From contig NZ_CP079946.1 in NCBI RefSeq assembly GCF_019968905.1, positions 5,729,356-5,793,355 on the forward strand: DNA of 64,000 bases, written 5' to 3'. This document shows, piece by piece, positions 4,994-54,999 of the stretch. Origin of the DNA: Corallococcus sp. EGB (GTDB lineage Bacteria; Myxococcota; Myxococcia; Myxococcales; Myxococcaceae). The notes below the pieces were generated by a model. It saw nothing but the letters and a program-made list of their open reading frames with translations, ran no database searches and had not been told where the DNA came from. The translations under genes and the position numbers were made by a program. Position 1 is the stretch's first letter, and every line of letters starts with the position of its first letter.

Positions 4994-5068
4994 TGGAGCG
5001 GGAAAAGGGATTTGAACCCTCGACCCTCGCCTTGGCAAGGCGATGCTCTACCGCTGAGCTATTCCCGC
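4994..5068 (-). tRNA. tRNA-Gly (anticodon GCC), copy 2, identical tandem duplicate with about 106 bp period
   Basis: Identical 75-nt sequence repeated; the flanking cttcgat motif is also duplicated. Confidence 0.85.
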
Positions 5069-5131
5069 ATCAGATGTTGCTGAACTGCTACTGCCTGCTG
5101 CCCGGTCAGTGCCGCGCCGGAAGTGGGGTGC

Positions 5132-30414: not shown

Positions 30415-30441
30415 CGCGTCCTGCTGAGGGGGGCACGCGCC

Positions 30442-33426
30442 TTAAAGCTCGTGCTCATAGGCTTTTTCCAGCGCGAGATTGTGGCAGCGATGCTCGGCCG
30501 TAGGGAAGCGTCTCCGCACGTCTTCCAAGGTGGCGACCGCGTCCCGTCGGCTTCGGAACTGAACCGCCCGCTGGAACTGCATCATCAGCTGGCTGCAGCG
30601 GTGGTCCAGCTCCATTGAAATCTGGGCGATCCGCTCCCGGACGTCGTCGTACAGCTCCGGCTTCTCGTCGAGCGCTTCCAGGGTGATCCACGCGGCCCGG
30701 TAGTCCCGCCACGACTTGAACAGGTTCTCCGCGCCCACATCCTTGAGCTCGTAGAAGCGGGCCCCGGACTTCGCCAGCTCCCGGGCGGAAGCGACCAACT
30801 GGTCGGGTGGCAGCTCGGGCACCGGGATGATCTCCAGGCGCAGGTTCCAGATGCGCCAGGGGTCATGGCCGGGCGGGTTGAGGGCGTTGTCGAAGAGGAG
30901 CTGGTTGTTGGCGTTGCGGCGCAGGAGGCTGGGGGGGAGGACGTGCTCCAGTTCGCGCTCGGCGGTCTGCGCCGTGTCTGGAGGCACCCAGCCCAGGGAC
31001 ACGCCGTTGAGGGACAGGTTGACCTCGTCCCGGGCGATGTCGCTGGCCTGATAGTGCAGCACCGCCACCGCGCGGGTCGGGGACACGAAGCGGAAGTCGA
31101 AGAGCTTGTCGTCGGCGTGGACCCAGCGCACGCCCTGGCCCAGGCCGAAGGAGTCCGGTACCGGATCCATGCCCAGCGTGAAGGGCTCGCGTCCCGGGAG
31201 GCGGATGGCGGTCGGCATCGCGAGCGCCGCGAGCAGCGTCACCCCCGCCAGCACCACCACCGCCGACACCGACACGAAGGCGATGCGCTTGGGCAGTGAC
31301 TGGCGCTGCCAGAAGAGCTGGAACTGGCCAGCGAGCGACTTGCCCAACTGACGCCGCTTGCGCGCCTTGTCCGCGGCGGACGAGGGCTCGACCTTCGCGA
31401 CGACCGTCACCGGGCCGTTGGGCACGAGCTGGATGGACGGGTCCTCCCGGTCGGGCGGGAGCGGCTGGGTGCCTTCGCCCTCCCCGTCCGCGGAGGGCGT
31501 GGGTGCCAGCAAGGGGGCCGCGCCCGGCGGCGGGCCGGGGTCCAGCGCCGGAGGAGGCACGGCGTGCTGCCGGCGGCCCACCTGCGTCACCGGCTCCGGC
31601 GGAGGCGGCGGGACGGGAGCGAGCCGGGCCTGCGGTGCCTCCGGAACCGCCGCGGCGGCGATGGGCGGTTCCTGGCCCGCGAAGGTCCCCGAGGCACGGG
31701 TCTCCTCGGGAGCCGCATCGACGTCATGGTCCTGGCCGACGAAGGTCGCGGGCTCGCGGGAGTCCGACGGGGGTGCGGCCGGTGCCGCGCTCGCGACACG
31801 CACCGGCGGGGACACGAGCGGGCTGACCGGGGTGATGGGCCGGAGGTCGAGGACCGTGCGCTCCTCGGGCTCCTCCATCGTCGGAGGGGGCAGCGCAAAC
31901 GCGTCGTCCCGTGGCGGCGGCGCGTCCACCGGAGGTGGCGCTTCCGGGGTCGCCTGAATCGCCATCAGCGTGCGCTCTTCAGGCTCCTCCAGGGCCGGCG
32001 CGGAGAGCGCGGACACGGCCTCGTGCGATGGCACTCCCCCCGGAGGCGGCGCTGCCGGGGTCGCCTGAATCGCCATCAGCGTGCGCTCCTCCGGCTCGTC
32101 CATCACCGCGATGGGCAGCTCGGGGGCCGGCACGGAGACGGGCCCAGGCGAATCCACGGTGGGAATCGCCATCAGCGTGCGTTCCTCCGGTTCCTCCGGC
32201 ACCACGGGCGCCAGGTCATTGGAGGGCGGCGTGACGGGAGGGCGCGCCGGGGGTGGCGGAGCCATGAGCCCCGGCGGCGTCATCAACGGAAGGCCGGACC
32301 CGGAGGAGGCCCCAACGCCTGGTGCCGTGGACGCACGCGAGGCGCCGCGATCCGGCGAAGGCCGGTTCGGTCCCGGCGTGCCAACACCGGGCGGGCTCGA
32401 GACACCATTCCGCTTCGCGGAAACAGGCTCCGTCGAGGCAGGAGCGCCCACCGCCGGAAGCTCCAGCGCCGTGATGTGGGCGGGCTCCACGGCAAGCGTG
32501 GCCGGCGCGTCCAACACGGGAGGGCGGCCGGCCCCCGAGCCATTGATCGCTGGCAGTCCCGGCCCGGAGGCCCTGACAGGGGTGGATGCTCCCGGAGCCT
32601 TGTTCACCGGCGAGGCGCTGCCCACGACAGGTCCCGCGGGCGCCTTGGCCGGCGAACCCGCGGGAGGAGCGGCAGCCCCCAACACCGGTGGCCCCGCGGG
32701 AGTTCTGGACGGCGCGCTCGCGGAAGGCCCCGAGGACGCCAACACCGGAGGCGAGCCGGGGACCTTGCCCGCGGCAGACGCTCCGGACGCGGAGCCCCCC
32801 AGCACCGGAGGGGGCCTGACCGGCGCGGTCCCCAACGCGGGAGCCCGCAGCACCGGAGGACTCCTGCCCGGAGTGGCAGCCCCCAGGACCGGGGGCACCG
32901 GTGGAGCCTTGACTGGCGTGGGGCCCCCCACCGCGGGCAGATCTGGAGCAGAGGGGCGCTTCGGTGGAGTCACCGCCGCCGGCATCACGGGCGTGGGCAC
33001 TGCCTTCCCTGAGGGCACGGTGGCGGCGGGACGCGGCGGAGAAGCGGGCCTCGCCATGGCTGGCATCGACTGCTGGTAGCTCGTGGGCGCCGCTTCGATC
33101 TCCGCGAGCGACGCCTGCTCCACGCCCTGCGGCGACACCTTCGCGTGCGGCGGCGCGAGCACCCGCCGGATGGGCCGGGTGACGTCGTCGTCCCCGTCCG
33201 GCGGCATCCACACGAAGGTGAACTCCACCGGCCCCACGGTGATGCGGTCCCCGTCGCGCAGCTGCTTCTCACCGCTCAGCAGCTGGCCGTTGAGGTGCGT
33301 GCCGTTCGCGCTGCCTACGTCCTCGGCGAAATAGCGCCCATCCCTCGCGGTGATGCGCGCATGACGACGGGAGACACCGTGGTCATGCAGCACCAGGTCG
33401 TTCTCCGAGGTCCGGCCGATCTTCAC
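30442..33426 (-). CDS. Large FHA-domain membrane protein (994 aa): N-terminal FHA, about 600 aa Pro/Ala-rich disordered region with four EEPEERTLMAI-type repeats, one TM helix, and a roughly 270 aa periplasmic C-terminal domain
   Basis: FHA motif IGRTSENDLVLHDHGVSRRHARI...SANGTHLNG; TM helix IAFVSVSAVVVLAGVTLLAALA. Confidence 0.75.
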   Translation of the reverse strand: MKIGRTSENDLVLHDHGVSRRHARITARDGRYFAEDVGSANGTHLNGQLLSGEKQLRDGDRITVGPVEFTFVWMPPDGDDDVTRPIRRVLAPPHAKVSPQGVEQASLAEIEAAPTSYQQSMPAMARPASPPRPAATVPSGKAVPTPVMPAAVTPPKRPSAPDLPAVGGPTPVKAPPVPPVLGAATPGRSPPVLRAPALGTAPVRPPPVLGGSASGASAAGKVPGSPPVLASSGPSASAPSRTPAGPPVLGAAAPPAGSPAKAPAGPVVGSASPVNKAPGASTPVRASGPGLPAINGSGAGRPPVLDAPATLAVEPAHITALELPAVGAPASTEPVSAKRNGVSSPPGVGTPGPNRPSPDRGASRASTAPGVGASSGSGLPLMTPPGLMAPPPPARPPVTPPSNDLAPVVPEEPEERTLMAIPTVDSPGPVSVPAPELPIAVMDEPEERTLMAIQATPAAPPPGGVPSHEAVSALSAPALEEPEERTLMAIQATPEAPPPVDAPPPRDDAFALPPPTMEEPEERTVLDLRPITPVSPLVSPPVRVASAAPAAPPSDSREPATFVGQDHDVDAAPEETRASGTFAGQEPPIAAAAVPEAPQARLAPVPPPPPEPVTQVGRRQHAVPPPALDPGPPPGAAPLLAPTPSADGEGEGTQPLPPDREDPSIQLVPNGPVTVVAKVEPSSAADKARKRRQLGKSLAGQFQLFWQRQSLPKRIAFVSVSAVVVLAGVTLLAALAMPTAIRLPGREPFTLGMDPVPDSFGLGQGVRWVHADDKLFDFRFVSPTRAVAVLHYQASDIARDEVNLSLNGVSLGWVPPDTAQTAERELEHVLPPSLLRRNANNQLLFDNALNPPGHDPWRIWNLRLEIIPVPELPPDQLVASARELAKSGARFYELKDVGAENLFKSWRDYRAAWITLEALDEKPELYDDVRERIAQISMELDHRCSQLMMQFQRAVQFRSRRDAVATLEDVRRRFPTAEHRCHNLALEKAYEHEL
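31880..32215 (-). repeat. Imperfect tandem repeats of about 100 bp inside the large FHA gene, encoding four (D/E)EPEERT(L/V)(M/L)AI peptide repeats
   Basis: DNA motif gaatcgccatcagcgtgcgctc(c/t)tc(a/c)ggctc(c/g)tcc recurs three times with 95-105 bp spacing; approximate coordinates. Confidence 0.6.
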
Positions 33427-33499
33427 TTCGGCCTGCTCGAAGGCGAGCTCCCGTCCGACCTGGAGCCCCTGGGTGATGGTGAGCAGGATGGGCAGAGGA

Positions 33500-34387
33500 C
33501 TAGCCCCCGACGTTGCCGAACATGAACTGGAACACGATGGGCCCGAAGAGCACCATGAACACCGTCGGGAAGATGCAGGCGATCAGCGGGAACAGCATCT
33601 TCACCGGGGCCTCGCCGGCCAGCTTCTCCGCGCGCTGCGTGCGGTCGATGCGCATCTGCGTGGACTGGATGCGCAGCACCTTGCCCAGGCTCGTGCCCAT
33701 CTTGTCCGCCTGGATCAGCGCCGTGACGAACGTCGTCAGCGACGGCAGGTCCACGCGCATGATCATGCTCTTCAAGGCCTCTTCGCGCGTCTTGCCCATC
33801 TTGAGCTGCTTGAGCACCAGCTGCAGCTCCTCGCGCAGCGGACCCTGGCGGCCCTTCTCCACCACCTTCGCCAGCGCGCCCGTGAAGTCCATGCCCGCTT
33901 CCACCGACAGCGTCAGCAGGTCCAGGTTGTACGGGAGCGCGCGGCTGATGGCCAGGTGACGGCGCTTCACCTGATCGTTCAACCAGATGAGCGGATAGAA
34001 CAGGCCCAGGAGCATCACCAGCAGCGACCACGCCAGGTTCGCGCCAATGCCGTTGACGACGAACAGGCCGGCGAGCAACGCGAAGAACGCGCTCACCTCC
34101 TGCAACGCCATGATGTCCTCGGGCTTGTACTGCGACGGCTCGCCCGCCTTGATCAGCTTGCGGCGCGTCTTGGACTCGTAGCTCGGCCACATGAAGCGCC
34201 GGTTCATCGCGCCCAGCTTGCGGACGGCGACGGAGCCCGCGCCCTTCATGCCGCCAGCGGACTCGTCCCGCACCTCCGTGAGGAAGCGCTCCAGGACGTT
34301 GGTGTACAGGCCGATGCCCAGGAACGCCACCGCGCCCGCGGTCAGCAGTACCGAGCCGCCCATCAGCAGAGATGTCAGGACTTCCAC
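33500..34387 (-). CDS. Tad/type II secretion system F-family inner-membrane platform protein (TadC-like)
   Basis: T2SSF-domain polytopic membrane protein; pairs with the following TadB-like gene. Confidence 0.8.
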   Translation of the reverse strand: MEVLTSLLMGGSVLLTAGAVAFLGIGLYTNVLERFLTEVRDESAGGMKGAGSVAVRKLGAMNRRFMWPSYESKTRRKLIKAGEPSQYKPEDIMALQEVSAFFALLAGLFVVNGIGANLAWSLLVMLLGLFYPLIWLNDQVKRRHLAISRALPYNLDLLTLSVEAGMDFTGALAKVVEKGRQGPLREELQLVLKQLKMGKTREEALKSMIMRVDLPSLTTFVTALIQADKMGTSLGKVLRIQSTQMRIDRTQRAEKLAGEAPVKMLFPLIACIFPTVFMVLFGPIVFQFMFGNVGG

Positions 34388-34400
34388 GGTACGCCTCGCT

Positions 34401-35246
34401 TCAGATGTCGATGTTGACGATGCGGCGGATGATGAGGATGCCCATGATCTCCATGATGGCGATCAGGGTCACCAGGATGTAGCCGAAGATGTGGTTCATC
34501 ATCGGCTCCATCAGGTCCGGACGCATGTAGTTGAGCACCATGCCCAGCACCGCCGGCATGGCCGCGACGATCCACCCCTGAAGCTTGCCCTGGGACGTCA
34601 GCGCGTCGATCTTGCCTTCCAGACGGAAGCGCTCGCGGATCACCGTGGAGATGGTCTCGAACATCTCCGCCATGTTGCCGCCCAGCTGGCGCGCGATGTT
34701 GGTGGACACCACCACCAGCTCCAGGTCGTCGCTGCCCACGCGGCGGCCCATGTTGATGAGCGCCTCCTCCAGCGGCACGCCCAGCTTCACTTCCTTCACG
34801 AAGAGGCCGAACTCCTGGGACAGGGGCGGCATCGCCTCGCGCGCCACGTGCTCGATGGCCTGCGGGAACGTGAGGCCGGCCTTGAACGCGTTGGCCATGG
34901 CCTGCAGCGCGTCCACCAGCTGCACGTTGAACTTCTTGATGCGGCGCTTGCGGTAGTGCTTCACGAGCAGCATCGGCAGGAAGAAGCCGAAGATGGTCGC
35001 CAGCACCGCCAGGATGGGGTTGAAGACGATGTAGCTGAGGATGCCCAGGAGGCACATGCAGGCGATGTTGAGGATCAACATCTGCCGCGCGTCGATGAAG
35101 AGGAACATGTCGCTCAAGTCGTTCATCGACTTGGCGACGTACCGCTCCTGGTACTGCTCATACGCCTTCGACAGGACGCTGAAGATCACCAGGCTGAAGA
35201 AGAAGACCGAGCCGGTGACGAGAAGGAGGACGATACCTGCGAGCAT
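34401..35246 (-). CDS. Tad/type II secretion system F-family inner-membrane platform protein (TadB-like)
   Basis: T2SSF-domain; ...AFKAGLTFPQAIEHVAREAMPPLSQEF... is typical of TadB. Confidence 0.8.
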   Translation of the reverse strand: MLAGIVLLLVTGSVFFFSLVIFSVLSKAYEQYQERYVAKSMNDLSDMFLFIDARQMLILNIACMCLLGILSYIVFNPILAVLATIFGFFLPMLLVKHYRKRRIKKFNVQLVDALQAMANAFKAGLTFPQAIEHVAREAMPPLSQEFGLFVKEVKLGVPLEEALINMGRRVGSDDLELVVVSTNIARQLGGNMAEMFETISTVIRERFRLEGKIDALTSQGKLQGWIVAAMPAVLGMVLNYMRPDLMEPMMNHIFGYILVTLIAIMEIMGILIIRRIVNIDI

Positions 35247-35322
35247 GGGCGCGAATCCCCGGGGGATGAGGGAGGGGGTGGCAGGGCCGCTCCAACTTCA
35301 GGAGGCGGCCCCGCGCGCGGGA

Positions 35323-36138
35323 CTACGGAGTGCCGGCCGAGGCCTTCTCGCCGCCGCCGCCCCGGATGACCGTGATGATCTCCCGGCGCTTCTGCTCCAG
35401 CACGCGGGTGCGCTCACCGGAGAGCAGCGTGCTGATGGTGGCGCGGCCACGCTCCTCGATGAGGTCCACGTCGTCCTCGTTGCGCAGGGACAGCGTCAGG
35501 TTGCCGAGCTCCGCCGCCAGCACGAGGATCTCCGCCTCTTCCGGCAGCACCATCAGCGAGACGTTGCTGTACTCGCGCTGGTTCTCCGGGATGAGGTTGA
35601 TGTTCGTGGTACCGGTGATCTTGCCCGTGGCCACGACGATGATGTTCTGCAGCAGCGTCACCGCGACGCTCTCGTCCGTCTGCGGATCGCGGAACGTGCC
35701 GATGATGTCCACGTGGTCGTTCGGGCGGATCCACCCGCCCACCGCGGTGGTCTGCTTCGCCTCGATGGTGATGGCGCGCGCCTTCTTCTGCACCTTCGTG
35801 GACAGGCGCTCGGCGGCCTTCGTGGTCTCGAACTGGCTCCAGAGGATGGGGTCGCCGGCCTGCAGCGCCACCAGCACCTTCTGGTTCACGATGTAGTTGG
35901 CGGAGTCCGGCTTCACCACCGACGAGGTGACGAACTGCTCCGGCACGGAGCGCTGGGAGATCATCTCATACGTGATGACCGAGCCCTCGGGCATGTCCTG
36001 CCCCGCCACCACCACGGGAACCAGGTTCCACCCGCGGCGCACATCGGCTTCCTTCTTCTTGATGGCCGAGTAGGCCACGATGCCCGCGAGCAAACCGAGC
36101 ACCAGTGCGACGACGAGTGGGGTCTTACCCTTCAACAT
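35323..36138 (-). CDS. cpaB: Flp pilus assembly protein CpaB/RcpC family (periplasmic, N-terminal TM anchor, SAF domain)
   Basis: N-terminal TM helix LVVALVLGLLAGIVAY, then the CpaB N- and C-terminal domains. Confidence 0.75.
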   Translation of the reverse strand: MLKGKTPLVVALVLGLLAGIVAYSAIKKKEADVRRGWNLVPVVVAGQDMPEGSVITYEMISQRSVPEQFVTSSVVKPDSANYIVNQKVLVALQAGDPILWSQFETTKAAERLSTKVQKKARAITIEAKQTTAVGGWIRPNDHVDIIGTFRDPQTDESVAVTLLQNIIVVATGKITGTTNINLIPENQREYSNVSLMVLPEEAEILVLAAELGNLTLSLRNEDDVDLIEERGRATISTLLSGERTRVLEQKRREIITVIRGGGGEKASAGTP

Positions 36139-36198
36139 GGTTCGAGGTCCTCCAGAACGGTGGGGCGCCGTCGTGGCGGCAGGACTGCTTGGGACGAG

Positions 36199-36228
36199 GG
36201 GGCGATGCCAGGGCGCGAACGGGGCCTA
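36199..36228 (-). promoter_or_regulatory. Putative sigma-70-type promoter (TTGACA-N18-TAACAT) for the cpaB-tadB-tadC-FHA... array
   Basis: Minus strand reads ggttTTGACAcccgcagcggtgcatggcTAACATtagg, about 60 nt upstream of the cpaB ATG, within a 232 bp intergenic gap; approximate coordinates. Confidence 0.4.
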
Positions 36229-36370
36229 ATGTTAGCCATGCACCGCTGCGGGTGTCAAAACCACCTCTCGTGACAAAGCGGAATCCCGGGACCTCCGGCA
36301 CTCGCGGGGCCTGCCCACCCGGCTGGGAGGACGGCGCGACACACGAGCGGATCCGCGACCCTGGCGTCCC

Positions 36371-36655
36371 TCAGGGGAACGGCAGGTTCAGCACGAAGTA
36401 GAACGAGTCGTAATAAATCTGGTACGCCTCGAGGAACAGGTCGATGACGTTGGACTGCTTGTCTTCGTTCCAGCGGATCTTCACCGTGGCGCCGATGACG
36501 AGCCCGACGATCAACACCCAGTTGATCATCGAGTACTCCACCATGGCCTGGCCACGGCGGGCCCGGCGCGGCGGCGACTTCCGGGGGCTGTTCACGGGGG
36601 GAGCGTGCACGATGCCCCCATTATCCAGCACCGGGGCCCTGGACGCATCGGTCAT
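36371..36655 (-). CDS. Candidate Flp/Fap-family type IVb prepilin: 37-aa basic leader, G/QAMVEY processing motif, hydrophobic helix. Could alternatively start at the internal Met as a 57-aa product
   Basis: ...RRARRGQAMVEYSMINWVLIVGLVIGATV... matches the Flp G-XXXX-EY motif followed by a hydrophobic helix; GC3 is clearly lower than in neighbouring genes (att, tat, aat, gaa codons); sits between the anti-sigma gene and cpaB. Confidence 0.55.
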   Translation of the reverse strand: MTDASRAPVLDNGGIVHAPPVNSPRKSPPRRARRGQAMVEYSMINWVLIVGLVIGATVKIRWNEDKQSNVIDLFLEAYQIYYDSFYFVLNLPFP

Positions 36656-36673
36656 GTGGACTGCCGCCCTCCC

Positions 36674-38074
36674 CTACTGCGCGGGCTGGGCGGGGGCCGC
36701 CTTGGACGGAGCCGCGGGGGGCGTGGCCTGACGCAGGCGGCGCTGGGCCAGCTGGGCCGCGCTGGAGTCCGGGGCCTCGGAGATGATCTGCCCGCAGACG
36801 GCGGCGGCCTCCCGGGTCCGGCCCTGGACGGACTCGGACTCACAGAGGCGGGAGAGCAGCGCCAACCGCTCGCTGCCGTTGGCTCCAGCCGCGAGCGCGG
36901 CGCGCAGCAGCCGGGCCTCGCTGGCACGGTCGCCCCGCTCCGCGGCGGCCTGGGCCTGGGCGGACAGATCGCGCGCCGTCATCGCCTTGTCGGAGGCGGC
37001 CTTCCCCACGGGCACGGGCTTCGCGGTCGACGCCCGGGGGGACGCGGGCTCCGGGGGCGCGGCCCCGCCAATGGAGCCCGGGGTGCCGGGGGCCATGGTC
37101 ACGGACTGGGCCTGGGGCGCGGCGGCCGCAGGAGGCGGCGGCGACGCGGAAGCGCTCGCGCCCCCCTCGTCCGCGTCGTCCGCGGCGAGCCCCCGGCCAT
37201 AGGCCTTCGCGCCCAACCGCAGCGAGTCGTCCTTCGCGGCCAGCGCGGTGTCCGCGCCTGCCGCCGTCGCACGCCGCGGCGCGGGGACGACCTTTCCGGC
37301 CAGGTAGCCGTCGGACTTCTCTTCCTTCAGCGATGAAGCCATCTCCGCTGGCAGAGCCCCCGCGGCCGGTTCGAGCGGCGCGAACTCGTTGTCCGCGTCG
37401 CGGACGGCCTTGGCCACCTTCTTCTTCGGGGCGTCGTCGTACGAGCGGCGCCGCTCCAGGAGCGCGCCGCCGCTGCCCGCGTTCATCCAGTCCGACGGAC
37501 GGGCCGCGCCCTTGAGCTCCGCCTCCGCCTGATTCCGGTCGAACTTCTCATCCATCGGCGCGGGTGAGACGGCCGCCAGCGCATCCGCGGCGCCCTCGGA
37601 GGAAGCCTCCTTCACGGCAGTGGGGGCAGGCGCCATCGTCGCGGTCGGCTGGCGCTTGTCCCACTCCTCCGCCTTCGCCGCGACCGGAGCGGCCTTCTGC
37701 GACAGGTTCGGCTCCAGCTGGAGGTTCTGGCTGATGGTCAGCGAGAGGAGGCCGAAGGTGCTCACCATGGCCACGCCCACCGCAGGCAGCAGCCAGCGGC
37801 GCCAGCGCGAGGGCTTCGGCTCGGGCCCCGCGGCGGCGCGGCGCGCGGCCTGCTCCGCGTACGCGAGCAGCGACTCCAGGCCCGCGTCCGGCGCGGGTTC
37901 GGCCGACAGCTGCGCCATGGTGGTGCGCACGCCGCGGATGTCCGCCAGCGCCTTCGTGCAGCGCGCACAGCCCTGGACGTGCTGCTCCAGCACCTGGGCT
38001 TCCGACGCGGGCAGCTCGCCGTAGGCGAAGTCGAGGAGCCGGTCCTCGTGCGCATGGACATTCTGGGCACTCAT
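36674..38074 (-). CDS. Anti-sigma factor: N-terminal zinc-binding ZAS-like domain, TM helix, Ala/Pro-rich periplasmic region with C-terminal TPR
   Basis: HVQGCARCTKAL (HxxxCxxC) anti-sigma motif; TM helix WLLPAVGVAMVSTFGLLSLTI; start overlaps the ECF sigma stop. Confidence 0.7.
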   Translation of the reverse strand: MSAQNVHAHEDRLLDFAYGELPASEAQVLEQHVQGCARCTKALADIRGVRTTMAQLSAEPAPDAGLESLLAYAEQAARRAAAGPEPKPSRWRRWLLPAVGVAMVSTFGLLSLTISQNLQLEPNLSQKAAPVAAKAEEWDKRQPTATMAPAPTAVKEASSEGAADALAAVSPAPMDEKFDRNQAEAELKGAARPSDWMNAGSGGALLERRRSYDDAPKKKVAKAVRDADNEFAPLEPAAGALPAEMASSLKEEKSDGYLAGKVVPAPRRATAAGADTALAAKDDSLRLGAKAYGRGLAADDADEGGASASASPPPPAAAAPQAQSVTMAPGTPGSIGGAAPPEPASPRASTAKPVPVGKAASDKAMTARDLSAQAQAAAERGDRASEARLLRAALAAGANGSERLALLSRLCESESVQGRTREAAAVCGQIISEAPDSSAAQLAQRRLRQATPPAAPSKAAPAQPAQ

Positions 38075-38718
38075 CCCGCCACCGTCCTTCCATCCTCCGA
38101 CAGGTCGCCGTCCACGCCCAGCTCTCCCAGGCGGCGGCGCAGGCCCTCCAGCGCGTAGCGCATCCGGCTCTTCACCGTGTTCTCGGACACGCCCGTCACC
38201 TCGGCGATCTCCTTGAACGGGATGCCGCTGTACTCGCGCAGCACGAACACCTCGCGCTGTTCCTCCGGAAGGGCCCCGAGGGCCCGCTCCAACAGGGGCC
38301 GGAGCCGGGCGTTGTGCGCCCCGCGCTCCGGGCTGGCCCCGGCATCCGGCAGCCCCTCGCCCAGCGGACGTCCCTCGTCGCCGTCGGCACCCGCCGAGGG
38401 GGCTTCCAGGGACGTCGCCTGGCGGTAGCTCTCTTTGCGGGTGCTGTCCACGCAGAGGTTCCTCGCGATGGTGTACAGCCAGGTCGTGAACCGGGCCTTG
38501 GGCTCGTATTCCCGGGCGCTGCGGACGACCTTGAGCCAGGTCTCCTGCAGCACGTCCTCCGCCCGCGCCCGGTGCCCCACGAAGCGCAGGATGAAGTTGA
38601 ACACCGGCGCGCGGTGCTTGCGTACCAACGCTTCGAACGCGCGCGCGTCTCCCGCCTGGAAGGCGAGCATCAGCTGCTCGTCTGAGGTTTCGGGTGCCAA
38701 ACTTCCCCCAGTGCCCAT
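38071..38718 (-). CDS. ECF (sigma-70 family, RpoE-like) sigma factor. Start at MGTGGSLAPETSDEQLMLAFQAGD
   Basis: Region 2 (VFNFILRFVGHRARAEDVLQETWLKV) and region 4 (FKEIAEVTGVSENTVKSRMRYALEGLR) motifs. Confidence 0.8.
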   Translation of the reverse strand: MGTGGSLAPETSDEQLMLAFQAGDARAFEALVRKHRAPVFNFILRFVGHRARAEDVLQETWLKVVRSAREYEPKARFTTWLYTIARNLCVDSTRKESYRQATSLEAPSAGADGDEGRPLGEGLPDAGASPERGAHNARLRPLLERALGALPEEQREVFVLREYSGIPFKEIAEVTGVSENTVKSRMRYALEGLRRRLGELGVDGDLSEDGRTVAG

Positions 38719-38782
38719 GAAGCCACGGGTGCCATCCCCTTCACCGCCCACGGCCTGTAACGGACAGCCGCGCGCGAAAGGT

Positions 38783-39274
38783 CTATTCCGGCCGTGGCCG
38801 CCGGTAAGTGGCGAGAATGACAGGGACGGCAACCGCTGTCACCAGAAGTGCCTGCGCCAGCAGCACCGCCGGTAGCGGGCGCTGCACATGGACGTACAGC
38901 GAGCGGCCAAGAGCCAGCCCCAGCAGGACGCCCGTCAACGTGCGCACCGCGTTGGAACCGGAAGCGGGCCGGAAGCGTCCCACCGCCCAGTCCCCGAGCG
39001 CGGGCAGCGTGAGCGCCAGCACCACCGGCACGTCCCACTCCCACTGGAGCGGCGCCTTCAGCGCGAACAGCCCGACGAAGACGGCGGCGAGCACCGGGTA
39101 CGTGCCCAGGCACCGCGCGCACACGCGCGCGCCCGCGAGCAGGTACGTGCGGTTGTACTCATCCGCGTGATGATGGCTGAGCCAGAACACCGGCACCTCC
39201 TCCGGACGCGGAAACAGCGGGCCCGTGCTGCATGTCGCGCGAATCCCCTTCGGCCAGGAAGCACGCCGCGGCAT
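38783..39274 (-). CDS. DUF2085-like membrane protein (Cys-rich CxxC); start uncertain
   Basis: [10 protein letters not shown] motif plus three or four TM helices; the track ORF (to 39331) and even the MPRRASW start overlap the 3' end of the upstream ABC ATPase gene. Confidence 0.45.
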
Positions 39275-40210
39275 GGCCTCCCCCCAGGGGATACAGCGGC
39301 GGTGATTCAAGGCGGCAGCGCTCCATCGCATGCGGGCAGCGCGGATGGAAGGCGCAGCCGGACGGCGGAGACAGGGGCGAAGGCGGCTCGCCCGGCAGGA
39401 GCAGCCGGGCCCGGGGACGCTCCGGATCCGGCACCGGCACCGCGGACAGCAGGGCCTGCGTGTACGGATGGCGGGGACCTGCGTACAGCGCCCGCGACGG
39501 CGCGACCTCCACGATGCGGCCCAGGTACATCACCGCCACGCGCGTGGACACGTACTCCACGATCTTCAGGTCGTGCGCGATGAAGACGTAGGTCAGCCCG
39601 CGCTCGCGCTGCAGGTCCACCAGCAGGTTGACGATCTGCGCCTGGATGGAGACGTCCAGCGCGCTGATGGGCTCGTCCGCCACCACCAGGTCCGGACGCA
39701 ACGCGATGGCACGTGCGATGCCGATGCGTTGACGCTGGCCTCCGGAGAACTCGTGCGGGTAGCGGTGCCGCGCCTCGCGGGGCAGCCCCATGGCGTCGAG
39801 CAGCGCCAGCACCTCGTCCTCGCGAGCCTTGCCCTTCGCGAGCCCGTGGATGGCGAAGGGCTCCGCGAGGATGTCGCCCACCATCATGCGCGGGTTGAGC
39901 GATGCGTACGGGTCCTGGAAGACGAGCTGCATCTGCCGGCGCAGCGGGCGCAGCTCGCGCTGGGACAGCCCGGTCAGCTCGCGCCCGGCCACGCGGATGG
40001 AGCCGGAGGTCGGGTCGAGGAGGCGCAGCACCGCGCGCCCCAGGGTGCTCTTGCCGCAGCCGCTCTCCCCCACCAGGCCCAGCGTCTCGCCCCGGGCGAC
40101 GTCGAAGGACACGCCGTCCACCGCGCGCACCGTGCCGCGCGTTCGCCCCAGCCACCCGCCCTTCACCGGGAAGTGGACCTTGAGGTCGCGCACCTGGACC
40201 AGGGGTTCGC

Positions 40211-40214
<4 letters not shown>
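39159..40214 (-). CDS. Oligopeptide/dipeptide-type ABC transporter ATP-binding protein (OppF/DppF-like). Start at [11 protein letters not shown]; no cognate permease or binding protein nearby
   Basis: Walker [10 protein letters not shown], signature [14 protein letters not shown], Walker B LVVADEP, C-terminal oligopeptide-ABC domain (HPYTQALL...CAFHPRCP); the 3' end may be shorter than the ORF. Confidence 0.75.
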
Positions 40215-41232
<1,018 letters not shown>

Positions 41233-41236
<4 letters not shown>

Positions 41237-42225
41237 TTCTGGGCCAGCTCCTCCAGGAACTCCGCCTCCTGGATGAGCCCCTTGCGGATGAGCAGGCGGA
41301 TGAGGCTCGCGACCATGCGCGCGGGCTTCACCTTCTCCGTGTCCAGGCTGGCCTCCTCGCCGCGCGAGATGCGGTCGATGTCGTCCAGCACCGCCAGGTC
41401 CTCCTCGGAGAAGTCCGGCTTGGGCGTGAGGGCCACGGACGGCTTCACGCCCTGCGCGGCGCCGCCGAAGAGCACCACCGGCACGCGCGGCTTGCTCGGG
41501 TCCTCCGGCTCCGAGGGAGGCGGGGGTGGCGGCGGACGGGCCGCGGCGGGCGGGGGCGGAGGACGCGGGGCCTTGGGACGGGGCGTGGAGCCCAGGATGT
41601 CCTCGAGCACCTCCGCGCCGTCCGTGGAGGAGTCATGGGGCGGCGGCGGAGGCAGGTCCCAGTCCAGCGGCGGCGCGGGCGGGCGCGGCGGCGCGGGCGG
41701 GCGCGCGGCGGCCGGCGGGGGCGACGGCAGGATGTCCGGCGAATCGTCCTCGTCCATGTCCATGGGTTCAGCCTCCACGATGTCCAGCGGCTCGCCCCGG
41801 CCGCGCGAGAGCGCCTGCTCCAGGTCGTCCGACGCGGCGACGAACACCTTGAGCGGCTTGCGCAGCTGGAAGCGCAGCTCGTCCACCAGCATCAGGTTGC
41901 CCGGGTCCTCCACCGCGACGTGGATCTTCTCGCTGCGGCCGTCCTGCTCCGCGGCGAAGAGGAGCACCCGGTGCTCCGTCTGGAAGTCCATGGACACCAG
42001 CGACGACACCCCGTGCGGGATGTACTCGGGGAGCTTCACGAACGGCAGCTCGTGCTGCGCCGCCAGCGCCCGCGCGATGTCCTGGCCCGTGCACAGGCCC
42101 ATGGACACCAGCACCTCCCCCAGCTTGCGTCCCTGCCCGCGACGTCCGGAGGCCAGGGCCTGCTTCACCTGCTCGTCCGTCACCACTCCGGCCTGGACGA
42201 GGAGCTCACCAATCTTCTTGCGCAT
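41233..42225 (-). CDS. Standalone T2SSE_N/MshEN-domain protein (N-terminal domain of GspE/PilB ATPases, no ATPase domain) with a Pro-rich C-terminal half
   Basis: Two MshEN-type 24-residue motifs: [24 protein letters not shown] and [24 protein letters not shown] ([RK]LGxxLLxxGLLxxxxLxxALxxQ). Confidence 0.7.
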
Positions 42226-42234
42226 GGCCGGGGG

Positions 42235-42984
42235 CTACCGCTTGACCTTGGCGAGGTATTCCTCGCGAGAGAAAACGCCCTTCTCGATGAGCAGCTCCAC
42301 CATGGCCTTCAGCGCCGCGACCTCCTTGCGCTGGACCTCCTCCACGCTCTTGAGCAGCTCCGCGGGGCTTCCGGACGCCGCGCGGGGCGCCTCCTGCGGA
42401 GGCGCCTGACGGGGCGGCGGCGCGGCGGCGGGCTTGGGGGACATGGCCACCGCGGCGGCCGGGTCCAGGTCCTTGAGGTTCTTCACGACGGTGCGGCCCT
42501 GCGCGTCCACCACCTTGAAGTTGGTGTCCGCGTCCTCCAGCTCCGCCGTCTCCTCGTAGAGGCGCGCGAACGCCCGCGCCACGGAGGTGCGCCCCGCCAC
42601 GTTGGCCACGATGCGGCACTTGGACAGGGCCCGCAGCTCGTCCAGCACGCGCACGTTGAGCGGGTCCGACATGGCGACCACCAGCGTCTTGCCGTCGTCG
42701 CGCAGCTGCAGCGGCACGACAGAGAAGTCGCGGGCCGTCTGCGCCGGAATCTTGGCCTTCACGTGCGGCGGCACCATCTGCACGGAGTCCAGGTTCACCG
42801 CCGGCATGCCGAGCTGCTTCGACAGGGCGCGCACGAGGATGTCCTCGGAGACGAGGTTCATCCGGACGAGGATCTCGCCCAGCTTCCCGCCCCACTTGGC
42901 CTGCTCGGCGAGCGCCGCCTTGAGCTGGCTCTCCTGCAGGACGTTTGCCTTGATCAGCAGTTCTCCAAGCTTGATCTGTGCCAT
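42235..42984 (-). CDS. Standalone T2SSE_N/MshEN-domain protein. Start at MAQIKLGELLIKANVL
   Basis: Motifs KLGELLIKANVLQESQLKAALAEQ and KLGEILVRMNLVSEDILVRALSKQ (G10 replaced by N); no ATPase domain. Confidence 0.7.
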   Translation of the reverse strand: MAQIKLGELLIKANVLQESQLKAALAEQAKWGGKLGEILVRMNLVSEDILVRALSKQLGMPAVNLDSVQMVPPHVKAKIPAQTARDFSVVPLQLRDDGKTLVVAMSDPLNVRVLDELRALSKCRIVANVAGRTSVARAFARLYEETAELEDADTNFKVVDAQGRTVVKNLKDLDPAAAVAMSPKPAAAPPPRQAPPQEAPRAASGSPAELLKSVEEVQRKEVAALKAMVELLIEKGVFSREEYLAKVKR

Positions 42985-43043
42985 GTCGTGCGCGCCATAG
43001 TACCCGGTTTGAGCCGGGGCGCTTCCTTTCAACGCCTGGAAGC

Positions 43044-43874
43044 TCAGGAACCCGGCGCGGGGGGCGGCTGAGACACCGGCCCCTCCGAGTGGACCTCCTG
43101 GCCCCGCGCGTCGACGTTCACCACCTTCGCCCCCTCGGGAGCGGCCAGCTCGTAGAGCGACAGGTCCGGCCGGCCGTTGAGGCGGATGTCGGTGTATTTC
43201 AGGTCCAGCTTCGTGTCCGCCGAGGCGGCGATGAGGTGCACCTTGTCCGGAAAGAACAGATCTCCGCGCTGCTGGAAGTCCTCGAACGCCAGATCATAGC
43301 CCGGCACGCCCCGGACCTCGCTCTTCACCACGCGCAGGTGCTTGGGGTCCACGCGCAGTGTCTGCGTGGCGGGTCCCCGCTGGAGCTTGAGCACGTACAC
43401 CCGCTCCTTCTCGTCCAACTCCAGGGTCATGGACTCCGGGGGCAGCAGGGGGACCTGGCCCAGCATCACCGCGACCAGCTCCTCGCTCGGCAGGACGACG
43501 GGCAGGAAGCGGGACACGTTCTCCGCGCTCGCCGGGCCCTGGAGGTACGTGTTCTCCCGCGCCTGGTAGACGCCGAAGCGCTCGCCGTCGGAGATGAGCG
43601 AGGCCACCGGGCGGTTGAAGAAGTCGAACGTCTCCAGGTGGATGTACGCCGGGCGGGTGATGGAGAGGAAGGTGGAGAGCGTTCCGCTGCCCTGGGGGGA
43701 GTCCACGTGCAGCTTGGCGTCGCCCTCCAGGTTCACCACCTTCGCCTGCCGCTCGCGCACGTGCTGGTAGAGCGTCTGGGCGTCCTCGATGCGGCCCTCC
43801 GGACCGAACTCGAGGCGTTTGGGGCAGGCAGAACAGAGGAGGGCCAGGAAGATTGCGGCGGCTGCGCGGTTCAT
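43044..43874 (-). CDS. Outer-membrane lipoprotein, LolB-like/DUF4292 family
   Basis: Signal peptide with lipobox LLCSACP; LolB-like beta-barrel length and pattern. Confidence 0.6.
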   Translation of the reverse strand: MNRAAAAIFLALLCSACPKRLEFGPEGRIEDAQTLYQHVRERQAKVVNLEGDAKLHVDSPQGSGTLSTFLSITRPAYIHLETFDFFNRPVASLISDGERFGVYQARENTYLQGPASAENVSRFLPVVLPSEELVAVMLGQVPLLPPESMTLELDEKERVYVLKLQRGPATQTLRVDPKHLRVVKSEVRGVPGYDLAFEDFQQRGDLFFPDKVHLIAASADTKLDLKYTDIRLNGRPDLSLYELAAPEGAKVVNVDARGQEVHSEGPVSQPPPAPGS

Positions 43875-43916
43875 ATGTCCTAGTGTGAGCCAGGGCCGCC
43901 TGCCCGGTCATCCATC

Positions 43917-44648
43917 ATGAGCCTGAACGATCTACTTCATTACCTTCGCCTGGGCGGCGTCACCCTCGCCCTCCTCCTGGGCGCCTCCGTGGTGGCCCTG
44001 GGCGTGGCCATCGAGCGGCTCATCGCCCTCTGGGGCGTGAGCGAGCGCTCCCGCAACCTGGGGGAGATCGTCCAGAAGCACCTCCTCCGGGGGGACGTGG
44101 CCGCCGCCCGCACCGCCGCCGAGCGCTCCGACGCCGTGGCGGCCGACATCTTCCTCGCCGGGTTCGACCGCTGGGAGCGCTCCCGCACCAACGGGGGCAA
44201 CGGCATCGAGTCCGCCGTGGAGCGCGAGCGCGCCCAGGTGGGACTCAAGCTGCGGCGCAACCTGTGGCTGCTCGCCACCATCGGTTCGACGACGCCCTTC
44301 GTGGGCCTCTTCGGCACCGTGGCCGGCATCATGCGGTCCTTCAAGGACCTGGGCGTGGACGTGGAGGCCGGCGGCACCGGCGGCTCCGCGGCCGTGATGA
44401 CGGGCATCTCTGAGGCGCTCGTCGCCACCGCCGTGGGCATCCTCGTCGCCGTGCAGGCGATGGTCTTCTACAACTACTTCCAGGCCCGGCTGGCCCGGGT
44501 GCTGGTGGAGCTGCGGCTGTTGGGTGACGAGTTCGTGGAGGTCCTCAAGGAGCGCGCCTCCGGAGGCCCCGCGCCGGAGGCCACCACGCCCCCGCGCGAG
44601 AGCACCCCGCCTCCCGTCCCCCGGACGGATCCGCAGCCCGCCTCGTAA
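43917..44648 (+). CDS. MotA/TolQ/ExbB-family proton channel
   Basis: Three TM helices, conserved GLFGTVAGIMRSF motif. Confidence 0.85.
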   Translation: MSLNDLLHYLRLGGVTLALLLGASVVALGVAIERLIALWGVSERSRNLGEIVQKHLLRGDVAAARTAAERSDAVAADIFLAGFDRWERSRTNGGNGIESAVERERAQVGLKLRRNLWLLATIGSTTPFVGLFGTVAGIMRSFKDLGVDVEAGGTGGSAAVMTGISEALVATAVGILVAVQAMVFYNYFQARLARVLVELRLLGDEFVEVLKERASGGPAPEATTPPRESTPPPVPRTDPQPAS

Positions 44649-49664: not shown

Positions 49665-50786
49665 ATGGCCCGGATCCTCGTGGTGGACGACGACGTGCTC
49701 ATCCTCGCGGCGCTGTCCCGCATCCTCGTGGCGGAGGGGTACGAGGTCGTGACCCACAACGACCCGGTGGTGGCGGCGCGGGAGCAGGGCTTCGACGTGG
49801 TGCTGACGGACTTCATGATGCCGTACCTCAACGGCATCGAGCTGTTATCGGCGCTCCGGGAGAAGAACCCGCGCGCGGTGCGGCTGATGTTGACGGCGGC
49901 GGCGGACTTCAAGACGGCGTCGGAGGCGGTGAACCGGGGCGAGGTGTTCCGGCTCCTGGGCAAGCCGTGGGCGCTGAGCGAGCTGACCAGCAGCGTGCGC
50001 CAGGCCGTCGAGCACCACCGGCTGGTGGCGGCCAACGAGCGGCTGACTCGCGAGGTCGCGGAGAAGAACGCGGAGCTCGTGGCCGTCAACCGGGACCTGG
50101 AGCACCGGATCATCGAGCGTACGACGGGGCTGCTGGACGGGCTGATCAGCGCGCTGGACTACCGCGACACGGAGACGCAGTGGCACTCGCGGCGCGTGTC
50201 GCTGTACGCGCGGCGGCTGGCGCAGGAGATCGGCCTCACCGGCGCGGCGCTGGACACGGTGGAACAGGGCGCGCTGTTGCACGACATCGGGAAGATTGGC
50301 GTGCGGGACTCCATCCTGCTCAAGCCCGGGCCGCTCACGCCGGACGAGTGGGTGGAGATGAAGCAGCATCCAGAGTTCGGCTACCGGATGCTCGCGAAGA
50401 TGCCCTACCTGCATGAGGCGGCGCTCATCGTGCTGCAGCACCAGGAGCGCTGGGACGGCAAGGGCTACCCGCTGGGGCTCACGGGCGAGGAGATCGTCAT
50501 CGGGGCGCGCATCTTCTGCCTGGTGGACACGCTGGACGCCATCACGTCGGACCGGCCCTATCGCAAGGGGCGGCCCATGAGCGTGGCGCGCGACGAGGTC
50601 CGCCGCTGCGCGGGCACGCAGTTCGACCCGCTGCTCGCGGAGGCGTTCCTGGGCCTGCCGGAGACGGAGTGGGCCCGGATCCGCCGCGAGGTGGAGCTGA
50701 TGGAGGCGGCGGAGAGCCACCGCTGGACGGGCGCGAAGCTCGACGCGAACGGCCAGCCCGTGCCCGCGTGCGCCGCCGGGGCCTGA
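49665..50786 (+). CDS. Response regulator with an HD-GYP domain (c-di-GMP phosphodiesterase, RpfG-like)
   Basis: Receiver ILVVDDDVLI...DVVLTDFMMPYLNG...LGKP; HD-GYP motifs HSRRVSLYARR...LLHDIGKIGV...GKGYPLGL. Confidence 0.85.
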   Translation: MARILVVDDDVLILAALSRILVAEGYEVVTHNDPVVAAREQGFDVVLTDFMMPYLNGIELLSALREKNPRAVRLMLTAAADFKTASEAVNRGEVFRLLGKPWALSELTSSVRQAVEHHRLVAANERLTREVAEKNAELVAVNRDLEHRIIERTTGLLDGLISALDYRDTETQWHSRRVSLYARRLAQEIGLTGAALDTVEQGALLHDIGKIGVRDSILLKPGPLTPDEWVEMKQHPEFGYRMLAKMPYLHEAALIVLQHQERWDGKGYPLGLTGEEIVIGARIFCLVDTLDAITSDRPYRKGRPMSVARDEVRRCAGTQFDPLLAEAFLGLPETEWARIRREVELMEAAESHRWTGAKLDANGQPVPACAAGA

Positions 50787-54051: not shown

Positions 54052-54999
54052 TTGCCCGCCACCATGTCCGACGCCACGCCCCTCTCCCGCCTCCTCGACG
54101 CGCTGGGCTCGGCTGTCGTGGGCCAGCCCCGCGTGCTGACCGACCTGGTGACGGCCTTCCTCGCGCGCGGCCACGTGCTGCTGGAGGGCGTGCCCGGGGT
54201 CGCCAAGACGCTCACCGCGCGCAGCATGGCGGGGGCGTTGGGCCTGTCCTTCTCGCGCGTGCAGTTCACGCCGGACCTGATGCCCGCGGACATCCTGGGC
54301 ACCAACGTCTTCCAGCCGCAGTCGCAGTCCTTCCGCCTGATCAAGGGCCCTGTCTTCACGGAGGTCCTGGTCGCGGATGAGATCAACCGCACCCCGCCCA
54401 AGACGCAGGCGGCGCTCCTGGAGGCCATGGAGGAGCGGCAGGTGACCATCGACGGCACCACCCACCCGCTGCCGTCGCACTTCTTCGTCGTCGCCACGCA
54501 GAACCCGCTGGAGCTGGAGGGCACCTATCCCCTCCCCGAGGCGCAGCTCGACCGGTTCCTCATGCGCGTGCGCGTGGGCTATCCGGACGGCGACGCCGAG
54601 ACCGCGCTCCTGCGGGGCTTCCACCAGCGCGAGGGCCGGGCCCCCGAAGTGTCTCGCGTGCTGGACGCGGCCACGCTGACGGACCTGCAGGACCGCGCGG
54701 CCCGCGTCGCGTGTGACGACTCCATCCTCCAGTACGTGGTGCAACTGGTGCGCGACACCCGCGCCCACCCCCGTGTGCGGCTCGGTGCCAGTCCCCGCGC
54801 CGCGCAGGCCCTGCTCGCGGCGTCCAAGGCGCACGCGGCGCTCCGGGGCACCGACTTCGTCACCCCGGACGACGTGAAGGCCGTGACGCCGGGCGTCCTC
54901 AACCACCGCCTCCTCCTCAAGGCCGAGGCGGAGGTGGAGGGCGTCACCGCGGACGACGTGCTGAAGCAGATGCTCGAACGGGTGCGAGTGCCCCGGTGA
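54052..54999 (+). CDS. MoxR-family AAA+ ATPase
   Basis: Walker [11 protein letters not shown], Walker [10 protein letters not shown], sensor motifs; start may be MSDATPL (54064). Confidence 0.85.

Follow-up and report, generated by a model that had tools for sequence, protein, structure and literature searches.

Within a stretch of 64,000 nucleotides from Corallococcus sp. EGB (contig NZ_CP079946.1; hereafter the window, i.e. the whole stretch of DNA that was analysed, with a G+C content of about 71%), the span 41233..42984 consists of exactly two minus-strand open reading frames (ORFs), which we call genes A and B. Both encode a full MshEN domain, i.e. a two-motif helical bundle followed by an alpha/beta subdomain, and neither encodes an ATPase. 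We read the two products as paired cytoplasmic receptors of cyclic di-GMP (c-di-GMP) that would act by protein contact on the products of their own operon, and not as parts of the Tad machine whose genes lie nearby; we give this reading about an even chance. The two genes are the following.

42235..42984, minus strand: gene B, 249 amino acids (aa), ATG start, begins MAQIKLGELL; stand-alone MshEN protein, orthologue of MXAN_4667, first gene of the operon.
41233..42225, minus strand: gene A, 330 aa, ATG start; stand-alone MshEN protein, orthologue of MXAN_4666, paralogue of B.

A and B are real, conserved genes: the G+C content at third codon positions of A is 0.95, full-length orthologues occur across Myxococcaceae and Archangiaceae, and the orthologues of Myxococcus xanthus are transcribed. 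The gap between them is 9 nt, and an alternative start of B, a TTG at 43032, is unlikely. For B there are 1548 database matches (the best 120 at 71–98% identity), with orthologues at 98–52% identity in about 80 Myxococcaceae/Archangiaceae genomes; for A there are 207 (41–94% identity). The closest relatives of the window are Corallococcus genomes, and the B protein of C. coralloides KYC2213 is identical. The two proteins match each other by BLASTP (E 9e-15, 31% identity across the MshEN domain) and by this comparison are paralogous, A being the more variable partner (mean column identity 46%, versus 69% for B).

The original prediction, an earlier reading of this DNA, had proposed two tandem stand-alone MshEN proteins, and the ORFs, Pfam, NCBIfam, PDB matches and structure models all agree with it. 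With the Pfam MshEN model (PF05157, cutoff 23.1 bits) A and B score 44.3 and 55.7 bits respectively. With NCBIfam NF053729, “cyclic di-GMP-binding domain, MshE-related” (cutoff 38 bits), they score 58.3 and 64.8 bits, over positions 1–53 of 53. The NCBIfam models NfrB/PRK15489 and EpsG also align to both proteins, over the MshEN part. Against PDB sequences B matches the N-domains of Thermus thermophilus PilF, of Geobacter and Myxococcus PilB and of Vibrio cholerae MshE (E 9e-39 to 2e-10). Pfam and NCBIfam gave solely MshEN matches for the two proteins, and no homology to Tad components.

The predicted fold is that of MshE. In the AlphaFold model of A the predicted local distance difference test (pLDDT) is above 90 across residues 1–145, which form four helices and then the alpha/beta subdomain. 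Foldseek places MshE with c-di-GMP first (5htl, template modelling (TM) score 0.76) and PilF GSPII-B with c-di-GMP next; the top matches 5htl, 8pdk and 8pfa all have a probability of 1.00 and TM scores of 0.72–0.76, and further matches are 7lko, 4pht and 2bh1. In the AlphaFold2 (AF2) model of B the secondary-structure elements follow one another as in A, with four N-terminal helices, where pLDDT is low (residues 1–40). The GspE, PilB and MshE ATPases continue into a C-terminal T2SSE core, whereas in A and B only a linker and a short hairpin follow. Pfam gave no match to the T2SSE ATPase (PF00437, Walker A/B) in either protein at E<=0.1, in keeping with the claim that the GspE core is absent. 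The linker of A is the following.

41416..41790, minus strand: A residues ~146–270, proline-rich low-complexity linker of variable length, poorly conserved, pLDDT 47–64, no secondary structure.

The two 24-residue motifs expected in each protein are all present, and the residues that contact c-di-GMP are intact.

42814..42972, minus strand: B residues 5–57, MshEN_N four-helix bundle; two 24-residue motifs with a 5-residue spacer, Asn at both turn positions.
42055..42216, minus strand: A residues 4–57, MshEN_N; two motifs, 6 residues apart, with Gly instead of the terminal Gln in motif 1.

The consensus tested was (R/K/L)LGxx(L/V/I)(L/V/I)xxG(L/V/I)(L/V/I)xxxxLxxxLxxQ, in two copies with a spacer of about 5 residues. 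In B, motif 1 occupies residues 5–28 (KLGELLIKANVLQESQLKAALAEQ) and motif 2 residues 34–57 (KLGEILVRMNLVSEDILVRALSKQ); in A they occupy residues 4–27 (final Q changed to G) and 34–57. All four have the consensus layout, with Lys at position 1. The Asn that had been noticed in place of the central Gly in one motif pair lies at position 10, the turn Gly, of both B motifs, where orthologues have Asn or Ser.

To follow each position we compared 117 A orthologues and 120–121 B orthologues. The Gly at motif position 3 is invariant, i.e. G6 and G36 in A (117 sequences) and G7 and G36 in B (120–121). The Leu/Ile residues at motif positions 2, 6, 7, 17 and 21 and three of the four terminal Gln vary little or not at all (117–121 orthologues). 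For B, all motif residues are invariant in 121 sequences save positions 43 (N/S) and 44 (L/M/F), and the whole 53-residue segment is under strong purifying selection. In A the invariant or near-invariant residues are G6, G36, L9, L24, L54 and Q57, while position 27 varies between K, Q, R and G.

In MshE the backbone amide of the Gly at motif position 3 contacts the guanine. The substitution G11L abolishes c-di-GMP binding, G40I lowers it 72-fold and Q32A about 9-fold (Wang et al. 2016, supplement). The study of PilF GSPII-B found Lys or Leu at motif position 1 compatible with binding, extended the consensus to (R/K/L)LG… and linked Lys at this position to dissociation constants (Kd) of 6–53 nM (PMC11731258). 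We infer that A and B likely bind c-di-GMP, because the contact Gly and the hydrophobic clamp positions are intact and invariant and because the Lys at position 1 falls within the extended consensus.

Non-binding MshEN-like domains are nevertheless common, and one or both proteins might have lost c-di-GMP binding and serve only as scaffold or adaptor, like XpsE, PilF GSPII-A and the N-domains of V. cholerae PilB/GspE. The substitutions at the turn Gly of both B motifs (Asn/Ser) and at the terminal Gln of A motif 1 (Gly/Lys/Arg), together with the 6-residue spacer of A, would fit such a loss, as would the clearly degenerate second motifs of distant A-like proteins. But this seems quite unlikely, because Gly3, Leu2 and Leu17/21, the loss of which abolishes binding in MshE, are all present and invariant, both proteins score above the cutoff of a model dedicated to the c-di-GMP motif, and the 53-residue segment of B is strongly selected. 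Both orthologues were moreover classed as binders by Wang et al. 2016.

Beyond the MshEN domain, each protein ends in a conserved helical hairpin.

42238..42366, minus strand: B residues 207–249, conserved helical hairpin (…EVAALKAMVELLIEKGVFSREEYLAKVKR), near-invariant; helices 207–234 and 240–248, pLDDT ~75–82.
41236..41325, minus strand: A residues 301–330, conserved helical hairpin; helices 301–314 and 320–329, pLDDT 76–84.

When 1.84 billion cluster representatives were searched with a profile of B, 205 clusters matched at E<=1e-30. The best 150 representatives are for the most part proteins of 210–320 aa made up of MshEN, a variable linker and a C-terminal block “…ALKAMVELLIEKGVFSREEYLAKVKR”. 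A ends in a block related to that of B; the two are strongly conserved and are predicted, at moderate confidence, to fold as helix-turn-helix hairpins. In its pattern of hydrophobic residues the hairpin tracks the 24-residue MshEN motif, and in distant A-like proteins the C-terminal sequence, “ALGRLLIEKGILTKDEL…” or “ALGRLLIEKGILTKDELIAAL”, is near a full MshEN motif. In a profile-profile comparison the hairpins, which had been preselected by their motif-like pattern, aligned in register with MshEN motif 1 at 83% probability (E 9.5e-6); the control, motif 1 against motif 2, gave 98%. This is suggestive only of a third, degenerate copy of the MshEN motif. The hairpins of A and B have no Gly at position 3 and so should not bind the nucleotide. 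A SHOCT domain was also considered for the hairpin and dropped, Pfam giving no match even at E<=10.

We infer that A and B pair from three observations: in nearly all loci the two genes are neighbours, each protein has the hairpin, and the hairpin aligns with motif 1. The two hairpins, one per protein, could complete a four-helix bundle, which would account for the joint travel of the two genes. As far as we found, neither the conserved module around the genes nor the third-motif hairpin is described in the literature; both are modest additions.

The surroundings of the pair indicate with which products it may work. The genes on either side are the following.

43044..43874, minus strand: DUF4292/LolB-like lipoprotein gene, upstream of B (Pfam DUF4292, 55.6 bits).
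42985..43043, minus strand: intergenic region, likely operon promoter; TACTAT 12 nt before the start codon of B.
40211..41236, minus strand: OppD/DppD-like ABC ATPase, orthologue of MXAN_4665 (Pfam ABC_tran and oligo_HPY, NCBIfam).
39159..40214, minus strand: OppF/DppF-like ABC ATPase, orthologue of MXAN_4664 (Pfam; NF008453, 412 bits, above cutoff).
38071..38832, minus strand: extracytoplasmic function (ECF) sigma factor, orthologue of MXAN_4662 (Pfam Sigma70_r2/r4).
36674..38074, minus strand: anti-sigma factor with zf-HC2 (Pfam) and one transmembrane segment at about residues 91–114, orthologue of MXAN_4661.

The start of OppD and the stop of A overlap by 4 nt, and a gene for a DUF2085 membrane protein lies between OppF and the ECF sigma factor. 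ExbB and ExbD are divergent from the DUF4292 gene, on its upstream side. The DUF4292 lipoprotein scores 43 bits with NCBIfam LolB1_Flavo, the lipoprotein insertase of Flavobacteria, i.e. under the cutoff of 50.

In M. xanthus the orthologues of B, A, OppD, OppF, the DUF2085 gene and the ECF sigma gene form Operon 24, with MXAN_4667 first, followed by MXAN_4666, 4665, 4664, 4663 and 4662 (Kuzmich et al. 2022, Cappable-seq/operon table). During growth a strong transcription start precedes MXAN_4667 by 5 nt, and a further start, internal to the operon, precedes the sigma-factor gene MXAN_4662 by 66 nt (Kuzmich et al. 2022). Expression of MXAN_4666/4667 is steady in growth and falls slightly in development, with log2 fold changes of -0.4 to -0.8 (Kuzmich et al. 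2022). A scan of 38000..44200 found no canonical sigma-70 consensus site. By our own reading TACTAT is likely a -10 element, and its position together with the M. xanthus start at -5 suggests, by analogy, a nearly leaderless mRNA for B.

The gene neighbourhood was compared at three depths. In about 60 close genomes (Corallococcus, Myxococcus, Pyxidicoccus, Hyalangium, Archangium, Cystobacter and relatives) the order is ExbD and ExbB, which are divergent, then DUF4292, B, A, OppD, OppF, DUF2085 and ECF sigma, and the DUF4292 gene stands upstream of the pair in all close loci. In 18 deeper-branching loci, with B 52–70% identical (L053, L056, L057, L060–L071, L074, L078 and L079; e.g. L065 5494..12466), a full Opp importer is present and the order is DUF4292, OppA (SBP_bac_5), OppB, OppC, B, A, OppD and OppF. 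By this comparison the crown genera lost oppABC at the MshEN locus and kept only the two ATPase genes; oppABC is also absent from the 64-kb window.

The third depth consists of seven distant loci from uncultured Myxococcota (L081–L087; e.g. L084 932..14753). Their order is TPR, DUF4292, B-like, A-like, ECF sigma, a protein of about 400 aa without Pfam match and a TSP3-repeat protein of about 1200 aa. The B-like proteins have 250–313 aa and the A-like proteins 466–935 aa. Identity to the window proteins is 39–62% for ECF sigma, 34–48% for B and 23–33% for DUF4292. The ECF sigma factor adjoins the MshEN pair in all seven and is its most deeply conserved downstream neighbour. DUF4292 is confirmed by Pfam or tblastn in five of the seven, and the other two have a gene of similar size there, which is unconfirmed. 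The TPR gene precedes DUF4292 in six (in L086 the protein at this place has no recorded Pfam match), an arrangement that recalls the TPR-lolB pair of Pseudomonas. Six also have the TSP3-repeat protein, L083 having a response regulator and a histidine kinase instead. An OmpA-family gene is divergent in six of the seven, with a REC-GGDEF cyclase gene beside it in four. The flanks contain no Tad genes in any of the seven, and a single ABC ATPase follows the A-like gene in two. The distant locus looks like a conserved envelope/c-di-GMP module.

The gene sets kept at all three depths point to a deep core made of the DUF4292 lipoprotein, the MshEN pair and the ECF sigma/anti-sigma genes, which the opp and Kil genes would have joined later as lineage-specific additions. 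B is present in every locus. In L076 (9748..15261) the A orthologue is an uninterrupted ORF of 1837 aa with MshEN and a very long extension, of which Pfam recognises MshEN only.

These comparisons bear on the possibility that c-di-GMP-loaded A and B bind OppD/OppF and gate peptide uptake, and so do in trans what an MshEN domain does in cis to a GspE-type ATPase. In its favour, the 18 deeper Archangiaceae/Myxococcaceae loci have the pair flanked by oppABC and oppDF in one co-directional array, B, A, OppD and OppF stay together in the crown genera with stop and start codons that overlap, M. xanthus transcribes these genes jointly, and two of the seven distant loci have the single ABC ATPase directly after the A-like gene. 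In the other five there is however no ABC gene at this place, so that the association is not ancestral. Without oppABC in the window OppD and OppF would moreover be orphans, and we found no precedent in the literature for a coupling between MshEN and ABC proteins. We therefore regard this possibility as doubtful, though it keeps some probability. Our first view, of a pair embedded in an opp operon and hence a transporter regulator, was downgraded in the light of the distant Myxococcota pairs without opp genes.

The original prediction placed the pair inside a Tad-like cluster lacking its own ATPase. Such a cluster is present at ~28663..36655; it corresponds to M. xanthus kil cluster II, its T2SSE/CpaF ATPase is absent, and none was found among the window ORFs scanned. 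The pair is nevertheless outside it: five genes separate the two, the pair being beside the cluster, about 5 kb upstream and co-directional. On the 3' side of the anti-sigma gene the order is Flp-like pilin, CpaB/RcpC, two T2SSF proteins (TadB/C) and two FHA proteins.

36371..36655, minus strand: Flp-like pilin, 94 aa, no Pfam match; Flp/Tad signature …RRGQAMVEYSMINWVLIVGLVIG… (G/QAMVEY; G/XXXXEY then a hydrophobic stretch).
35323..36138, minus strand: CpaB/RcpC of the Tad-like cluster.
33500..35246, minus strand: TadB/C, T2SSF proteins of the Tad-like cluster.

The 94-aa ORF, directly after the anti-sigma gene, is probably a KilK-like Flp pilin. In M. xanthus kil cluster I is MXAN_3102-3108 and kil cluster II MXAN_4648-4661 (Seef et al. 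2021). MXAN_4661, the last gene of cluster II, is annotated as “putative zinc-finger” (Seef et al. 2021, supplement); by its position and domain it is the anti-sigma factor. Here the anti-sigma gene is followed directly by the Flp pilin and CpaB (36138..38074), whereas M. xanthus has MXAN_4656-4660 in between, i.e. the minor pilins KilL, KilN and KilM and two unknowns; the Myxococcus loci L013–L022 have about 3 kb of unmatched DNA at this position. These five genes thus appear to be missing here, which would make Tad-like cluster II shorter and bring the pair nearer to the Tad core.

According to the Kil papers the ATPase KilF is encoded in kil cluster I and has an FHA domain and no MshEN domain, and starvation induces the kil genes. 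A and B could in principle supply what KilF lacks, as c-di-GMP sensors of the Kil apparatus that dock on its platform or on the CpaF-like KilF and couple c-di-GMP to assembly or firing. MshEN domains usually sit on ATPases of type IV pili or type II secretion systems, and their C-subdomain binds platform proteins or PilZ (the matches to 7lko, 4pht and 2bh1). The absence of an ATPase among the scanned window ORFs, the co-directional position of the pair about 5 kb upstream of Kil cluster II and the same proximity in deep loci (L036, L053, L061, L062, L065, L069–71 and L073) would agree with this. But MXAN_4666/4667 fall outside the genetically defined kil clusters (MXAN_4648-4661), have their own transcription start in a different operon, and follow a trend in starvation opposite to the reported kil induction. 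In the seven distant loci the pair keeps DUF4292 and ECF sigma with no Tad genes in the flanks, and neither Kil paper mentions c-di-GMP or MshEN. We thus consider a role in the Kil apparatus improbable. The coupling to the Tad-like apparatus that had been proposed finds no evidence of direct control of a CpaF-like ATPase, and of the options considered a direct effect on the Kil machine has the weakest support. Transcription may offer an indirect link to Kil, through the sigma factor, because the anti-sigma gene adjoins the kil genes and is counted in kil cluster II.

We return to the reading of A and B as paired receptors acting within their own operon. The two 24-residue motifs would clamp one c-di-GMP by means of the motif Gly (backbone amides) and a cluster of leucines, in the manner of V. 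cholerae MshE and T. thermophilus PilF GSPII-B. The alpha/beta subdomain that follows is of the kind used by secretion ATPases for protein contacts and leads into a flexible linker, and A and B would probably be joined through their C-terminal hairpins. The c-di-GMP level would then be relayed by protein-protein contact to products of the operon. The best supported candidate partner is the ECF sigma/anti-sigma pair, which we rank first because it is the sole functional neighbour conserved throughout Myxococcota and because the anti-sigma gene abuts the Kil genes. The second candidate would be the co-transcribed OppD/OppF-like ABC ATPases, kept within Myxococcaceae and Archangiaceae.

A more specific version would have an A-B heterodimer, formed via the hairpins, modulate the ECF sigma/anti-sigma pair (MXAN_4662/4661) in a c-di-GMP-dependent manner and thereby place the Kil genes under c-di-GMP control in Myxococcaceae. 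In this precise form the proposal is a long shot. If true, it would link c-di-GMP to an ECF sigma factor in a new way and give a first function to the large, Myxococcota-wide family of stand-alone MshEN proteins. Streptomyces RsiG-sigma(WhiG), with its c-di-GMP-dependent anti-sigma factor, is a precedent for sigma control via a small helical protein that binds c-di-GMP. RsiG is unrelated to A and B in fold and in binding motif, and the link between A/B and the ECF sigma factor is here one of synteny alone.

Several points weigh against the reading of paired receptors. For A, B or their orthologues we found in the literature only bioinformatic prediction and no binding, interaction, mutant, localisation or other functional data, nor did we find there any experiment on a turn Gly changed to Asn or Ser, as in both B motifs. 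Motif 1 of A is without its terminal Gln, the residue whose change costs about 9-fold in MshE (Q32A). Motif 2 is degenerate in distant A-like proteins, so the ancestor of A may not have bound c-di-GMP. The AF2 confidence for B is low over the N-terminal bundle, probably because of the near-invariant alignment there. A is absent in L058, where B is directly followed by OppD (5032..5078), and only its C-terminal part is found in L043 (9738..10199); thus strict pairing is not universal. The synteny with ECF sigma and DUF4292 could be inherited from an old gene order and need not be functional. Finally, the anti-sigma factor sits in the membrane and is partly periplasmic, and such proteins normally sense envelope signals without a cytoplasmic adaptor.

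The pair is already catalogued and repeats a published census entry. Under “Predicted c-di-GMP binding” Wang et al. 2016 (Nat Commun 7:12481, Table 3) list 18 proteins of M. xanthus; MXAN_4666 and MXAN_4667 are two of them, and their aligned N-termini in the supplement of that paper match A and B. Both genes are also in the 17-gene MshEN RNA-seq set of Kuzmich et al. 2022 (mBio). In the texts of the papers we found no mention of MXAN_4661-4668, the entries being only in supplements. MXAN_4667 is the orthologue of B (86%) and MXAN_4666 that of A (~58%, Myxococcus sequences), with the same tandem order, motifs and downstream genes. The difference between the two species is one of species-level sequence only, apart from the apparently missing MXAN_4656-4660.

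Among the known systems, the N-domain of V. cholerae MshE (PDB 5HTL) is like A and B in fold (TM 0.76) and in the layout of the two-motif c-di-GMP site. In MshE, however, MshEN is fused to a GspE-type ATPase, which A and B lack; they also differ by Lys instead of Arg at position 1, Asn at the turn Gly (B) and the extra C-terminal hairpin. T. thermophilus PilF GSPII-B (PDB 8PDK, Kd 6 nM) has a Lys-type motif start and motifs close to those of B. It ranks with the top structural matches of A and with the top sequence matches of B, but sits in a triple-GSPII traffic ATPase, while A and B stand alone. E. coli NfrB (a glycosyltransferase), Methylobacillus EpsG and Bdellovibrio Bd2402 use MshEN or MshEN_N as a portable c-di-GMP sensor outside secretion ATPases; there the output domain is fused, whereas for A and B the output must be a separate protein.

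Two other c-di-GMP-related genes that the original prediction had reported in the window were confirmed, an HD-GYP response regulator (as REC-HD-GYP) and a hybrid kinase with a degenerate GGDEF domain.

49665..50786, plus strand: REC-HD-GYP protein, 6.7 kb from B; corresponds to MXAN_4675 by position and length.
18121..20634, minus strand: GAF-HisKA-HATPase-REC-degenerate-GGDEF kinase, 837 aa; matches SgmT (MXAN_4640, 836 aa) by length, architecture and position.

MXAN_4675 is one of six HD-GYP genes of M. xanthus and is induced about 2-fold in development. Because of its match to SgmT, a characterised c-di-GMP receptor kinase, the product of 18121..20634 is not an unknown hybrid kinase; MXAN_4640 is named as SgmT in the supplement of Kuzmich et al. 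2022. Unrelated to A and B, the plus-strand region 54052..56321 encodes a MoxR-type AAA ATPase (AAA_3) and then a DUF58/VWA protein, a BatA-like pair of the aerotolerance type.

M. xanthus has 17–22 MshEN proteins, and no stand-alone one has a known function. The pair described here is the best placed of them for further work, with constitutive expression from its own promoter, strong conservation and a module kept across Myxococcota. In Myxococcaceae this module of LolB-like lipoprotein, MshEN pair and ECF sigma/anti-sigma factors abuts the Kil predation genes. Knowledge of the partner of A and B would make clear by which path c-di-GMP acts on envelope or predation functions in these organisms.

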